A DNA stretch of 64,000 bases from Escherichia phage EC.P1, in the sequence record PQ657772.1. One strand, given 5' to 3'. Shown piece after piece: positions 1,497 through 9,302 of this stretch. The notes beneath the pieces are model-generated. The model was not told the DNA's origin and made no database searches. It saw nothing but the letters and a program-made list of their open reading frames with translations. Within the stretch, counting starts at the first letter, position 1. Every line of letters starts with the position of its first letter. A program made the position numbers and the translations under genes.

Positions 1497-1527
1497 TCCA
1501 GTACTATTATAGTACTGGATTTTTTAT
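1497..1527. terminator. palindromic hairpin terminator (CCAGTACT-ATTAT-AGTACTGG) with T-run
   Basis: 8-bp perfect stem plus TTTTTTATT directly after stop of 366..1490; abuts stop of 1527..1898 on the other strand. Confidence 0.65.
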
Positions 1528-1898
1528 TATAACATACGTTTTTTACGAATAGTATTGTGGATATTTTTTAAGTAGTTCACACCTTTACACAACCCATAAA
1601 ATACACCAGCACATACACCAAATGCAGGTATCATACATGCAAACATCGTTATCAATTCCCACATCTCCATACCATCTTGATTCGGTCCAAGGTCAAAGAT
1701 AACAACCAAAACCAAACCTGTGATACTTAGCATATAATATGCCATGAAGATAATAAAAGAAACAATACCAACATCAGAGCGAACTGAATTTAGCATATTA
1801 TATACTGGGGTTACACAGAAGTAATACAATAACCAAATCAAAGAACCTAAACTAAACACAATAATAGTAATGATTGAAAATATTTCACGATAACTCAT
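1527..1898 (-). CDS. small multi-pass membrane protein (family A, tandem array copy 1)
   Basis: 123 aa, hydrophobic helices, basic C-terminal tail; first of 7 tiled paralogs. Confidence 0.65.
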   Translation of the reverse strand: MSYREIFSIITIIVFSLGSLIWLLYYFCVTPVYNMLNSVRSDVGIVSFIIFMAYYMLSITGLVLVVIFDLGPNQDGMEMWELITMFACMIPAFGVCAGVFYGLCKGVNYLKNIHNTIRKKRML

Positions 1899-1899
1899 T

Positions 1900-2262
1900 T
1901 TAGTTCCTCTTACCTAAACGCTCATGGATTTCGGAAATCTTATTATACATCCATGCCAGCAACTCAACGGATGCACAGAGAATAACCACACACAGTGTTA
2001 GTGAACATACCATAATACCAAATGTTATAAAATTCGAACTCGATGTTAATAATGCAACCAGCATTAGAATAAAACCAAAATTGAATGCTGTACTCAACAC
2101 AGTATATGCTGGACTATATCTCCTTTGTATTACATCATATATATTTGATAATGGTCGCTTATGGAAGTACTTCCCAATGCACACGAATGCATTCAGTGAG
2201 AAGATAAATGTATACGCCATTACCATTAATTGACCAATAAAAGAAAATTCAATATTATTCAT
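1900..2262 (-). CDS. small multi-pass membrane protein (family A)
   Basis: 120 aa; hydrophobic; tiled 1 bp after neighbour. Confidence 0.65.
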   Translation of the reverse strand: MNNIEFSFIGQLMVMAYTFIFSLNAFVCIGKYFHKRPLSNIYDVIQRRYSPAYTVLSTAFNFGFILMLVALLTSSSNFITFGIMVCSLTLCVVILCASVELLAWMYNKISEIHERLGKRN

Positions 2263-2263
2263 G

Positions 2264-2635
2264 TTATCCTCGTTTGCGGTATTTGATGCTTTGGTGCATT
2301 CTCTGAAAATGTGGAACTAATACATATTGTACGGTTTGCCAAATTACCATCAGATTATGGACAGCACCACCGAGTAGACCAAACACTACACAGATAATTG
2401 CCAGTACTGGATCACCATCTACCATACCCCATTTGAATATATGTAAAATCCATACAGTGATAAGTAGTAATAAACTAATCCAATACGTAGTAAAAAATCC
2501 CGCATGTAATTCATAATCATCAGCAATTTCATCGTATACGGTTTCCAAGAAGGATACACAGAAGAACTTGCCAATAATAACAATTGTACTAATAAACAAC
2601 ATAGAAGTTAATATAATAAGTGCAATTTCCATCAC
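2264..2635 (-). CDS. small multi-pass membrane protein (family A)
   Basis: 123 aa; hydrophobic; basic C-terminal tail (KYRKRG). Confidence 0.65.
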   Translation of the reverse strand: MMEIALIILTSMLFISTIVIIGKFFCVSFLETVYDEIADDYELHAGFFTTYWISLLLLITVWILHIFKWGMVDGDPVLAIICVVFGLLGGAVHNLMVIWQTVQYVLVPHFQRMHQSIKYRKRG

Positions 2636-2946
2636 ATCCCTCGTTTACGCTTTTGATTGCGTCTAAATTCGGTTAGCCCACGACTAATCGGTGGCATCAG
2701 ACTACATAAAAAAATAACAGTTGTTGGTAATAACATGAAGTCAATCATTGCTGTATTAACAGGTGGATCACATACCAAATAATACAAACAAGTAATACTA
2801 ATTATGGTTGACCCAATAAAAGGAATACAAAATTCTTTTATCTGTTTTTCAACATAATCAAACATCTTCAATACAAATAAAAATCCAACCCAACACATAA
2901 TAAAATAGAATGAATAAAGCGTGTAAATCAATGTTACGATATCCAT
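2632..2946 (-). CDS. small multi-pass membrane protein (family A)
   Basis: 104 aa; ATGA-type overlap with neighbours. Confidence 0.65.
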   Translation of the reverse strand: MDIVTLIYTLYSFYFIMCWVGFLFVLKMFDYVEKQIKEFCIPFIGSTIISITCLYYLVCDPPVNTAMIDFMLLPTTVIFLCSLMPPISRGLTEFRRNQKRKRGM

Positions 2947-3284
2947 TAGTACCTCGCATCAGGAACTTTAGCACGTAATTTATGAACGGCTGGGATCAAC
3001 AACAAACTTACATATGCAATAGTTGAACCCCAATAGAATACTAATATAATTGGTTCACCATTAGAACGAAAACCTCTACTAATCATTGAGTAGTGAATAA
3101 TAGGCATAAACATCGCCATAAAAAACCATGCGTGTAATTTTAATTGCAGCATGTTATCAGAGATGAATACTGAAATTGGTCGTTTGAAGAACCACATCAG
3201 AAAGTAGAATCCAGCACTAAGAATATAGTACATAGTACTAACTTTCATATACCACGGCAGTAAGTGTAAAAAATATTCCATCAT
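2946..3284 (-). CDS. small multi-pass membrane protein (family A)
   Basis: 112 aa; C-terminal ...LRAKVPDARY. Confidence 0.65.
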   Translation of the reverse strand: MMEYFLHLLPWYMKVSTMYYILSAGFYFLMWFFKRPISVFISDNMLQLKLHAWFFMAMFMPIIHYSMISRGFRSNGEPIILVFYWGSTIAYVSLLLIPAVHKLRAKVPDARY

Positions 3285-3628
3285 TCCTCCGGTATCTTGT
3301 TTCGAAGTTCAATCATAACACAACAAAGTTTAATGGTCAAGTAAAAAACTACACATATCATACCCAATGTACCGTAAACTGCGGAGAATGCTGGCAGTAC
3401 CTTTCCTGTGAGTGTTGCTACAATACATGCTATCAATGTTGATGCAAACAACGATTGATTAATGAAAGAATTCATAAAATCTTCACCATTACGCTTATAG
3501 AATTGTCGTTTAAAATACCATCCTAGAAACATAACTACCCAAAATGTTACATAACCTGTTAGAATAATCCCTGCAATTGAATGTGCAACAGAACTACTCT
3601 TTAAAAACTCAAGATAAGATTCAAACAT
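3281..3628 (-). CDS. small multi-pass membrane protein (family A)
   Basis: 115 aa; C-terminal ...LRNKIPEE. Confidence 0.65.
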   Translation of the reverse strand: MFESYLEFLKSSSVAHSIAGIILTGYVTFWVVMFLGWYFKRQFYKRNGEDFMNSFINQSLFASTLIACIVATLTGKVLPAFSAVYGTLGMICVVFYLTIKLCCVMIELRNKIPEE

Positions 3629-7619: not shown

Positions 7620-7620
7620 C

Positions 7621-8001
7621 TCAAAATAAATTCATTTCATGTGCGTATTGTGGTTCAAGATGCGATAAGTTTTTGAAGCTTTCTTTCAACTCAGCATCAT
7701 CTACATACACCGTACCTGGTACATTCCCCATAGTGAAACCTACCCACACAGTCATGTCACCAGTCCCTAAGCGTGGCATTGATAGCGAACCATCAGGTGA
7801 AACATCAAACGCTACACTGAAGTCATCAGTAACAACGTCAGAACCATTTTCGAGAATAATACATCCACTATCTTTAAGCTTCTGAATGTGGATAGCAGCC
7901 TCTACAGCACGTTTGAAGTTATAGTAAGACTCTTTATCCTCAAACATTGATTGTTTAATCAGACGCTTGTTTAGCTCGGTTACTTTGTGCATTTGACGCA
8001 T
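7621..8001 (-). CDS. hypothetical protein
   Basis: 126 aa ORF. Confidence 0.55.
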   Translation of the reverse strand: MRQMHKVTELNKRLIKQSMFEDKESYYNFKRAVEAAIHIQKLKDSGCIILENGSDVVTDDFSVAFDVSPDGSLSMPRLGTGDMTVWVGFTMGNVPGTVYVDDAELKESFKNLSHLEPQYAHEMNLF

Positions 8002-8258
8002 TACTTATCCATCTCCCACAGTTGTAGAATTTCATAAGAGCCTGGTGGTGCTGGATTCCTGATCTCAGGGAATTGAGTACTTTTAGGATTTCCACCAGCA
8101 TTAAATTCGTCAAGTAATGATTCCAGTTCGCGACGATCCTGAACAACATAAACACAATCACCTGAACCTTCTTCGAGAATCATTTCACTTCCTGCACAAT
8201 CCCATACTGTTGAGATACATAGAATCTCTTTTGTATTTTTATTACGCAATGCAAACAT
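8001..8258 (-). CDS. hypothetical protein
   Basis: 85 aa ORF, 1-bp overlap with upstream gene. Confidence 0.5.
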   Translation of the reverse strand: MFALRNKNTKEILCISTVWDCAGSEMILEEGSGDCVYVVQDRRELESLLDEFNAGGNPKSTQFPEIRNPAPPGSYEILQLWEMDK

Positions 8259-8266
8259 AGCACCCC

Positions 8267-8611
8267 CTATCGATTTGGCATTTTATCTCGTAATCTAATG
8301 AGATAATCAACCACAGACCATGTTGAAATGAAAGTGATATAAGTACCGAAGAATCCTACCAGAATAAAGGCAACAAGTGTACTCCCATTTGGATCTTCAG
8401 CTTTAATACCGATGATACCATCAAATACAGTGAAAAATGTAGACATACACGTTAAACAGATGTACATCACCAATAAGAATTCATGTTCCAATGATGGATA
8501 TAAACGGTCAAAGAGTTTATAAAATTTAAAGTACAGTAGGAGTATACCAACAAAGGTATAGAAAGTAAACAGTGTTGTTATGATATATGAGATTAAATTT
8601 AAATTATACAT
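8267..8611 (-). CDS. small multi-pass membrane protein (family A, second array)
   Basis: Track ORF 8267..8635 trimmed to internal ATG at 8611 to remove overlap; C-terminal ...LRDKMPNR. Confidence 0.55.
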   Translation of the reverse strand: MYNLNLISYIITTLFTFYTFVGILLLYFKFYKLFDRLYPSLEHEFLLVMYICLTCMSTFFTVFDGIIGIKAEDPNGSTLVAFILVGFFGTYITFISTWSVVDYLIRLRDKMPNR

Positions 8612-8612
8612 C

Positions 8613-8960
8613 TCAACGCTCCGGTAGATTATCACGTAAGGTTTTAATTCGATTATACAATTTCATTGCTACATTCCCAAATAAACCAGAACCCATTACT
8701 AAAATGTATGCGATGATCATAGTAATAATCACAATAGTACCTAGACTGTAATGTACTGCACTAATACCCATTATTGTTTCTACAATGATGTGAGCAACAG
8801 AAATAATCAAAAGTACTACTACAATTGGATGATTTGGATACATTCGGTTAAACAATGTTTTGTACTTAAAGAAGTACAGTACTCCACCAAATAAGAAGTA
8901 CACAATGTAGATTGATGCAACGGCATAAGCAAACGCATTAGTGTAAAAAATCATTATCAA
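8613..8960 (-). CDS. small multi-pass membrane protein (family A)
   Basis: 115 aa; C-terminal ...LRDNLPER. Confidence 0.6.
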   Translation of the reverse strand: MIMIFYTNAFAYAVASIYIVYFLFGGVLYFFKYKTLFNRMYPNHPIVVVLLIISVAHIIVETIMGISAVHYSLGTIVIITMIIAYILVMGSGLFGNVAMKLYNRIKTLRDNLPER

Positions 8961-8963
8961 TCC

Positions 8964-9302
8964 TTACTTTTCAGGGATTTTATTACGCCACTCATCGATG
9001 CGATGAAGCAGTTTAAAGAGCAAAAATATCGGAACAGTAGCTATCATAGTAGCAATTGTTAGTAATGTCAACACCGATACGAGATTTAATTCGTCAGTAC
9101 TATATCCACATACCAGTGCTTCAATTATCCCCCACGTACATGCACTGAACATCAAAAATGAAATTGGTGCATCGTAGTATATGCGTTGATACAAGGTCGT
9201 GTATCGGAAGAATGCAATAATGTAACAAAACATGTAATACACCCAAATTAACGATACTACATAAAATGATACCTTATTAATTAATTCAAAATGATGTTCC
9301 AT
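8964..9302 (-). CDS. small multi-pass membrane protein (family A)
   Basis: 112 aa; C-terminal ...WRNKIPEK. Confidence 0.6.
   Translation of the reverse strand: MEHHFELINKVSFYVVSLIWVYYMFCYIIAFFRYTTLYQRIYYDAPISFLMFSACTWGIIEALVCGYSTDELNLVSVLTLLTIATMIATVPIFLLFKLLHRIDEWRNKIPEK

Follow-up and report, generated by a model that had tools for sequence, protein, structure and literature searches.

Two arrays of genes for small membrane proteins lie near one end of a 64,000-nucleotide (nt) stretch of Escherichia phage EC.P1 (PQ657772.1), the whole of which we refer to as the window. Seven back-to-back open reading frames (ORFs) occupy 1527–3966 (array 1, m1–m7) and three more occupy 8267–9302 (array 2, n1–n3), all on the minus strand and at the coordinates given in a preliminary description of this DNA. 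Directly upstream of array 1 lies a gene for a P-loop ATPase resembling NrdC.10 of T-even phages (Table 1). Over its first 10 kb the window shares 99% identity with Escherichia phage fEgEco12, and it falls within Asteriusvirus, a group of 121Q/PBECO4-like jumbo myoviruses (coliphages) with genomes of ~350–385 kb. Rak2-like jumbo phages (among them 121Q, PBECO4, RaK2, K64-1, GAP32 and CBB) are being developed for therapy, and more than 80% of their genes have no known function.

Mechanical ORF bounds coincide with those of Table 1 except at m3 (2264–2635), n1 (8267–8635) and n2 (8613–8960), for which an ATG with a Shine–Dalgarno sequence, as chosen in the fEgEco12 annotation, provides a better start at 2632, 8611 and 8954, respectively. 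The ten proteins measure 104–123 amino acids (aa) with or without this correction. Within array 1, stop and start codons of successive genes overlap by 1 or 4 nt or are spaced by 1 nt, and the Shine–Dalgarno sequence of each gene is located inside the preceding one.

Table 1 Features of the array region, with positions in the window.
Feature	Position	Strand	Description
12-bp perfect hairpin	1495–1521		Separates m1 from the convergent RCC1-like gene; resembles a terminator on both strands
m1	1527–1898	-	123 aa, clade B, last gene of array 1; phrog_27618
m2	1900–2262	-	120 aa, clade B; clusters with m3 at E<1e-8
m3	2264–2632	-	122 aa from ATG 2632 (ORF reaches GTG 2635), clade B; phrog_26405
m4	2632–2946	-	104 aa, clade B, most divergent member; phrog_33258
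m5	2946–3284	-	112 aa, clade A, most conserved member
m6	3281–3628	-	115 aa, clade A, C-terminal LRNKIPEE
m7	3628–3966	-	112 aa, clade A, first gene of array 1
Promoter-like TTGACA-17-TACTAT (10/12)	3996–4024	-	Overlaps a 7-bp hairpin in the ATPase–m7 gap; consensus match only
NrdC.10-like P-loop/AAA NTPase	4034–4804	-	256 aa; phrog_1250 at E=7e-103
Sigma-70 promoter TTGACT-18-TATAAT	4833–4862	-	28 nt upstream of the ATPase start codon
n1	8267–8611	-	114 aa from ATG 8611, clade A, C-terminal LRDKMPNR
n2	8613–8954	-	113 aa from ATG 8954, clade A, C-terminal LRDNLPER; phrog_19285
n3	8964–9302	-	112 aa, clade A, C-terminal WRNKIPEK
Sigma-70 promoter TTGACT-18-TATAAT	10039–10068	-	Overlaps a hairpin; heads the unit o9599, o9312, n3, n2, n1

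One divergent family with two clades

Profile comparison confirms the ten genes as one divergent and ancient paralogous family made up of clade A (m5–m7, n1–n3) and clade B (m1–m4). Pairwise phmmer comparison is convincing solely for n1, n2 and n3, and most other pairs score near zero. The paralogy that had been proposed for the ten copies nevertheless rises above chance in profile–profile comparison, in leave-one-out searches and in a genome-wide scan with hidden Markov models (HMMs). When single members were omitted from the HMM, the omitted protein ranked first among the 361 ORFs of the window in eight of ten cases, the exceptions being m3 and m5. Orthologue-enriched profiles, first built from seven phage loci, gave hhalign probabilities of 98% for n1–n3 (n1–n2 97.6%, n1–n3 97.6%, n2–n3 98.6%), 95% for m5–m6, 91% for m2–m3 and 80–88% for m6 with the n proteins.

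Deeper clade profiles included sequences from the exhaustive profile search described below and from other genera. Within clade B they joined m2/3 to m1 at 98.4% and to m4 at 94.3% (E=1e-7, 103 columns). Comparisons within clade A reached 94.8–98.8% (m7–m6 98.8%, m7–n1–3 98.5%) except for the direct comparison of m5 with n1–3, at 6.7%; m5 is linked into the clade through m6 (97.3%) and m7 (94.8%). Across the clades, n1–3 matched m1 at 88.9% over 91 columns and m2/3 at 76.4% over 111 columns, and column-reversed control profiles produced probabilities of at most 13%. On these scores the link between clades A and B is the weakest step of the one-family case.

The family was also sought among the 1280 ORFs of at least 50 aa, many other membrane ORFs included, in the complete Asteriusvirus genome TH47 (352 kb). 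The family HMM found exactly ten members there at 62–95 bits, with the next ORF at 9.5 bits, and clade-specific HMMs detected members of the other clades with zero false positives at E<0.01. None of the small three-helix ORFs at 6522–6773, 17744–18127, 18582–18908, 27900–28325 and 28322–28759 of the window matched the family HMM.

Predicted topology and conserved motifs

Alignment combined with transmembrane (TM) prediction placed length, three-helix topology and motifs in register across the ten members. Where three to four helices per protein had been described, three is the number returned both by hydropathy, with three Kyte–Doolittle hydrophobic segments in ten of ten proteins, and by AlphaFold2; a count of four did not hold. 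Lysine and arginine residues, summed over the ten proteins, number 73 in loop 1 plus the C-terminal tail versus 8 in the N-terminus plus loop 2, and because of this distribution the positive-inside rule predicts an N-out/C-in topology. The basic tail noted previously is present in nine of the ten, whose last 15 residues are net positive; the corresponding stretch of m6 carries a net charge of -1.

AlphaFold2 was run on the family alignment for one member per clade. The model of m6 (clade A; mean predicted local distance difference test, pLDDT, 72.9) has helices at residues 2–38, 42–46, 48–77 and 84–111, and that of m1 (clade B; pLDDT 70.0) at 3–26, 30–38, 42–69 and 79–122. Both models predict a common architecture in which TM1 is followed by a short juxtamembrane helix, TM2 is joined by a short outer loop to a long TM3, and TM3 extends into the cytoplasm.

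Family-wide conservation is concentrated at the cytoplasmic face. A single phenylalanine (F39 of m6) is invariant in 72 members that are less than 60% identical to each other, and sits within [IL][GL][WK][FY]F[KC] at the cytoplasmic end of TM1. After TM3, the same 72 non-redundant members show the C-terminal consensus L-x-x-L-[RH]-x-K-[IL]-[PK]-x-[RK]. The R-(N/D)-K-(I/M)-P-E motif to which the preliminary description drew attention is the clade-A form of this general motif. In the version R-(N/D)-(K/N)-(I/L/M)-P it is found in m6, n1, n2 and n3, with the variants LRAKVPD in m5 and GRAKIRGD in m7, but it does not extend to m1–m4, which follow [HR]-x-x-[ILQ]-[KRG]-x-[KR]-[KR]. In the clade-B form histidine replaces arginine and the tail is rich in lysine and arginine.

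A conserved ATPase–array module behind early-type promoters

The start of m7 (3966) lies 67 nt downstream of the ATPase gene on the same strand. The ATPase is a homologue of NrdC.10 from T-even phages (T6) and is represented in ~1300 phage records. Its Pfam matches are to AAA and nSTAND families, with only PF00004 (AAA) above the cut-off (23.8 vs 21.2 bits); a PDB sequence search returned only P-loop noise, and PADLOC models only P-loop-level matches at 14–16 bits. An array follows this gene in every Rak2-like genus examined: in Asteriusvirus (the relatives 121Q, ph0011, JNE01 and A4), Salmonella phage Munch, Erwinia phage Hallingskeid (ten members), Klebsiella phage RaK2 (eight members), Cronobacter phage GAP32 (six genes annotated ‘3 transmembrane domains’) and Xanthomonas phage XbC2. 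The genes flanking the module differ between genera, and the gap between the ATPase and the next gene is 0–11 nt in four of the five other genera. Array 2 is not directly downstream of the ATPase, being 4.3 kb away. A similar array was also sought behind nrdC.10 of T-even phages and rejected: in T6 that gene is followed by a seg-like endonuclease and nrdC.9–nrdC.5.

The RaK2 array, which was excluded from profile training, reads m6, m6, m7, m5, m4, m2/3, m1 (E=4e-10 to 1e-40, with m1 at 1e-40 and m5 at 5e-30) and has in addition a weak n-like member (E=2e-3). Apart from the m6/m7 order it is collinear with the window. Clades A and B occur together in every Asteriusvirus, RaK2, Hallingskeid and Munch genome examined; the members in GAP32 and XbC2 are too divergent for clade assignment.

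Two allele types of the ATPase, ~59% identical to each other, are found within Asteriusvirus. Type II (JNE01, ph0011, WPEC3) is ~86% identical to the Hallingskeid ATPase, which suggests exchange of this gene between genera. The ATPase allele type does not co-vary with the array allele type. Relative to the window, A4 has an ATPase that is 96% identical and arrays at 33–65%, and ph0011 an ATPase at 59% and arrays at 60–91%.

Near-consensus sigma-70 sites, defined as matching at least 11 of 12 positions of TTGACA-N16–18-TATAAT, number 39 on the minus (coding) strand of the 64 kb and zero on the plus strand, compared with ~4.5 in shuffled sequence. Most lie just upstream of genes, and several overlap hairpins (e.g., 10068–10039). 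The array block stands behind dense promoters of this kind, in keeping with the early region to which it had been assigned, and we infer early-type transcription by host RNA polymerase. In RaK2, near-consensus promoters are found immediately before the ATPase gene and immediately after the array; GAP32 has weaker promoter-like matches (9/12 and 10/12) at the same two positions, and in Munch the ATPase and array are bracketed by annotated terminators.

Copy number and divergence

The divergent Asteriusvirus lineages JNE01 and A4 carry one-to-one orthologues of m1–m7 and n1–n3 in the same order. Individual lineages also differ in gene content: 121Q and ph0011 carry an additional m7-like gene, m4 is duplicated in JNE01, and A4 has only one n-type gene. 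Copy number is 7+3 in the window, 8+3 in 121Q, ph0011 and JNE01 and 7+1 in A4, alongside eight in RaK2 and ten in Hallingskeid; Munch has three clear members (two after the ATPase, one upstream) and one weak candidate. A split m4 in 121Q and a truncated m6 in SD-2_S15 were not counted as signs of dispensability because they may be sequencing errors.

Array genes are 27–65% identical to their counterparts in JNE01 and A4, with saturated synonymous divergence (dS), whereas the interspersed genes DenV, o6141, tm83, o6802 and o6990 are 94–100% identical. This difference marks the arrays as old divergent cassettes in a recently homogenised backbone. Positive selection was looked for gene by gene and region by region with the Nei–Gojobori method, and the ratio of nonsynonymous to synonymous divergence (dN/dS) never rose above ~0.56. 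Values were 0.07–0.56 for whole genes and, by region, 0.47–0.52 for TM2, 0.28–0.40 for TM3 and 0.28–0.36 for the C-terminal tail. The lowest ratios (0.06–0.25) belonged to TM1, loop 1, the N-terminus and the periplasmic loop, the last at 0.12–0.21. Within orthologue groups, conservation is lowest in TM2, loop 2 and TM3.

Breadth of the family

Word-indexed searching across 5.8 billion clusters retrieved 25, not one of which carries a Pfam domain or a name that hints at a function. An exhaustive HMM search of 1.84 billion representative proteins yielded 51 clusters at E<=1e-3, of which 49 are 99–130 aa long and most align over nearly the full profile. The two off-size matches, one local within a 1617-aa protein (E=4e-9) and one to a 177-aa two-repeat protein, are probably spurious or convergent. 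The proteins of the window are covered by seven PHROG families of unknown function (27618, 26405, 33258, 27396, 19046, 19454 and 19285), nearly all at E-values of 1e-46 to 1e-60 and n1 only at 4e-4; m2 falls in none.

No member matched a transporter, holin, Imm or exclusion family in a Pfam scan at E up to 1, and NCBIfam and PDB sequence searches gave no match above threshold for the array members. PADLOC defence models matched none of those scanned (m1–m7, n2, n3). Because homology is supported and no transporter or other housekeeping family was found in Pfam, NCBIfam or PDB, the proposal of a distinct membrane protein family stands. Labels in the ph0011 record that name ‘Phi92_gp231/233/234’ as homologues in phi92 were considered and set aside as annotation noise, since the genes so numbered in phi92 are small ORFs (121, 75 and 71 aa) with no relation to the array genes.

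The ORFs themselves are already known, having been deposited as hypothetical or membrane proteins and sorted into the seven PHROG families, and the searched papers on Asteriusvirus, CBB and jumbo phages do not discuss the array genes. What is new is the single two-clade superfamily, the genome-wide count of ten, the clade-wide ATPase–array module and the evolutionary pattern. The NrdC.10-like ATPase linkage, the A/B sub-structure and the commonness of tandem paralogue arrays in these genomes go beyond the preliminary description.

Possible functions of the arrays

We tentatively favour, though at somewhat less than an even chance, a reading in which the array products act early as stand-alone binders in the inner membrane, protecting the infected cell or taking over host membrane functions. 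The family is specific to Rak2-like jumbo phages and expanded by tandem duplication into clades A and B; host RNA polymerase would transcribe its tightly packed genes early, in polycistronic units. Each product is predicted to insert with its N-terminus in the periplasm and its C-terminus in the cytoplasm, crossing the membrane three times, with TM3 running into a basic cytoplasmic tail. The Phe motif at the end of TM1 and the L-x-x-L-[RH]-x-K-[IL]-[PK] motif after TM3 form a constant part and the TM2–loop–TM3 hairpin a variable part. We hypothesize that each paralogue alone acts as a membrane-embedded binder whose hairpin recognises a different inner-membrane target, and that the paralogues together condition or protect the membrane of the infected cell early in infection.

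Anatomy, homology, the topology prediction, the promoter pattern and the phylogenetic distribution are shown by the analysis, and the binding targets and the biological outcome are the parts of this proposal that we infer. One outcome could be superinfection exclusion by blocking DNA entry of secondary phages, a function that the preliminary description had suggested, and another the silencing of host membrane proteins or of membrane-acting defences. Each taken singly is doubtful; they seem about equally likely, and both together are possible. The characterised small early proteins that phages place in the inner membrane (T4 Imm, P22 SieA, HK97 gp15) are mostly exclusion factors. This precedent, together with flexible copy number, the separate array 2, independent recombination of ATPase and arrays and divergence focused on hot spots, is why we favour membrane binders. 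Flexible copy number in particular argues against a machine of fixed stoichiometry. Other envelope-targeted early proteins encoded nearby (6522–6773, 9599–10012, 12854–13411) provide a supporting context.

Several observations weigh against such stand-alone binders. Database searches linked the proteins by neither sequence nor fold to any characterised exclusion, anti-defence or host-takeover protein. An arms-race signature is missing, since no gene or region reaches a dN/dS of 1 and the periplasmic loop ranks with the most constrained regions, and the faster change of TM2 and TM3 may reflect merely tolerant hydrophobic substitutions. Paralogue identity and order are kept between Asteriusvirus and RaK2. 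The module always comes with the same ATPase, apparently as one transcription unit in RaK2, GAP32 and Munch, and this constant tie would be explained no less well by a complex whose parts assemble together. The conserved motifs on the cytoplasmic side could hold each protein together as an intramolecular clasp instead of serving as a functional surface. Spackle is an exclusion factor of T4-type phages, and fEgEco12 has a gene annotated as such elsewhere in its genome (g10, ‘protein spackle’).

The main rival, possible but on balance unlikely, is that the paralogues are subunits or adaptors of a hetero-oligomeric inner-membrane assembly (a ring, scaffold or channel) working with the NrdC.10-like ATPase, in which case the conserved cytoplasmic motifs would be a docking or packing surface. 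ATPase–array adjacency has been kept in six lineages with different outer flanks, promoters (strong in RaK2) or annotated terminators bracket exactly the ATPase and array in RaK2, GAP32 and Munch, and the gap after the ATPase is minimal in most other genera. The retention of paralogue identity and order from RaK2 to Asteriusvirus, the co-occurrence of both clades in four of the lineages (Asteriusvirus, RaK2, Hallingskeid, Munch), the overlapping or 1-nt-spaced stop and start codons of the array and the focus of conservation on the cytoplasmic face would also suit an assembly. However, copy number varies from ~4 to 11, array 2 is remote from the ATPase, and the ATPase occurs in ~1300 phage records, which include T-even phages without such an array. 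ATPase and array alleles recombine independently (A4, ph0011), the fastest-evolving parts are the TM helices that would form the subunit interfaces, and tight gene packing is general in this genome. The more specific proposal that the ATPase and 4–10 paralogues build a new membrane machine particular to Rak2-like phages, a ring or scaffold docking the ATPase through the Phe and [RH]xK[IL]P motifs, is less probable still; its role could be host membrane remodelling or substrate transport across the membrane early in infection.

A role in lysis control, as holins, antiholins or pinholin-like proteins serving the signal-arrest-release (SAR)-type endolysin of Rak2-like phages, is very unlikely. 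Size, three TMs, predicted N-out/C-in topology and a charged C-terminal tail correspond to the general architecture of class I holins, and the paper on CBB describes a Rak2-like endolysin with an N-terminal transmembrane domain beside which no holin is named (PMC5259590). However, the genes matched no holin family in Pfam or PHROG, stand behind early-type sigma-70 promoters and lie far from the endolysin (gp532 in 121Q, with the arrays at gp207–209 and gp224–232). There is no annotated lysis gene within ~8 kb in fEgEco12, and ten copies with no dual-start motif would be atypical. The authors of the fEgEco12 genome do claim a putative holin, without stating its gene number.

That the ten ORFs are not one family and share only the generic resemblance of small hydrophobic proteins is scarcely credible: near-zero pairwise phmmer scores, the PHROG split into seven families with m2 outside and an A–B link of just 76–89% hhalign probability would allow it, but it is contradicted by the reversed-profile controls, by clade HMMs that cross-detect without false positives among the 1280 ORFs, by the narrow size range of the 51 matches from 1.84 billion proteins, by the invariant Phe and motifs in register across 72 non-redundant members, by the similar AlphaFold2 architecture of both clades and by their presence within one array in several genera.

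Neighbouring genes and other tandem arrays

At least seven tandem paralogues with RCC1 repeats (‘chromosome condensation regulator’) converge on array 1, from 366–1490 on the plus strand onward beyond the start of the window (L001 1–9490). The same convergent arrangement is found in 121Q, A4, Munch, Hallingskeid and XbC2. The left end of fEgEco12 (21091–27280) has ~28 consecutive overlapping genes for ~70-aa products (g057–g084), which apparently form another large tandem array in the same region as g10. The RCC1-like array and these ~28 genes temper the earlier view that ten copies of one family is unusual: the number is notable but not extraordinary, as tandem paralogue arrays are common in these genomes.

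Between the arrays, an HNH endonuclease gene (5442–5855) separates DenV from the gene that follows. The HNH gene is shared with fEgEco12, ph0011 has an unannotated gene that agrees with it in size and position, and 121Q and JNE01 have no HNH gene there; because of this patchy presence it looks like a mobile insertion. Two small soluble ORFs, 5852–6157 and 8001–8258, both belong to phrog_8563 and form a dispersed paralogue pair, the second located immediately downstream of n1.

The transcription unit of n3–n1 is headed by a gene for a 137-aa signal-peptide protein (9599–10012) that is hypervariable in Asteriusvirus (44% identical to 121Q, 56% to JNE01 and 28% to A4). The 83-aa ORF at 10440–10691 has a hydrophobic N-terminus and corresponds to fEgEco12 g556, annotated ‘lytic conversion lipoprotein’, although no canonical lipobox was seen; if that annotation is correct, it would be a receptor-blocking exclusion factor near array 2. 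A further small multi-helix membrane ORF at 12854–13411 had no family HMM match.

Other paralogues are scattered through the window. All-versus-all phmmer comparison (E<1e-4) grouped ORFs of 119–170 aa around 36462–37230, 50780–51292 and 55020–55430 into a four-member family, and paired 10763–12256 with 13621–14004, 12261–12803 with 39277–39834, and 17397–17747 with 18138–18533. The adjacent and similar-sized ORFs 27900–28325 and 28322–28759 may be another small paralogue pair.

Significance

These results merge seven PHROG families of unknown function and m2 into one superfamily and define a conserved early-type module in which an NrdC.10-like ATPase is followed by an array of three-helix inner-membrane proteins. 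The ten small, cloneable genes are concrete candidates for superinfection exclusion, anti-defence or host-membrane takeover. If their products co-assemble with the ATPase, they would represent a new kind of phage membrane apparatus and give a first functional handle on the widespread T4-type NrdC.10.

Comparison with known systems

Like T4 Imm, P22 SieA and HK97 gp15, the array proteins are small phage-encoded proteins predicted to reside in the inner membrane of the infected or lysogenic cell, and like the genes of that comparison group they are found among early genes behind host-type promoters. They differ in that the known factors are single-copy genes, as opposed to arrays of 7–10 paralogues here, and share no sequence similarity with the array proteins (no exclusion family in Pfam). 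T4 Imm has two transmembrane helices rather than three.

Class I holins of the lambda S type resemble the array proteins in length (~105–125 aa), three TMs, N-out/C-in topology, which is predicted here, and a charged cytoplasmic C-terminus. The array genes depart from them in lacking a holin-family match, endolysin adjacency and a dual-start motif, and in their early promoters and ten copies.

The RCC1-like ‘DNA condensation’ arrays share with ours tandem duplication, retention across the clade and a copy number that varies among relatives, but they encode soluble beta-propeller proteins of unrelated sequence on the opposite strand. A closer counterpart is GAP32_522–527, whose annotation reads ‘membrane protein, 3 transmembrane domains’ and names neither a family nor a function. 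These six proteins occupy the same place after an NrdC.10-like gene, are of the same size and have three TMs, and three of the six match the family profiles at E<0.01. They are, however, much more divergent, with a C-terminal YFGxKRxK, and their array is broken by a 254-aa soluble protein. The closest of all are the seven PHROG families, which contain the same proteins as our array members; PHROGs keeps them separate, whereas here they are brought together as a single superfamily with two clades.

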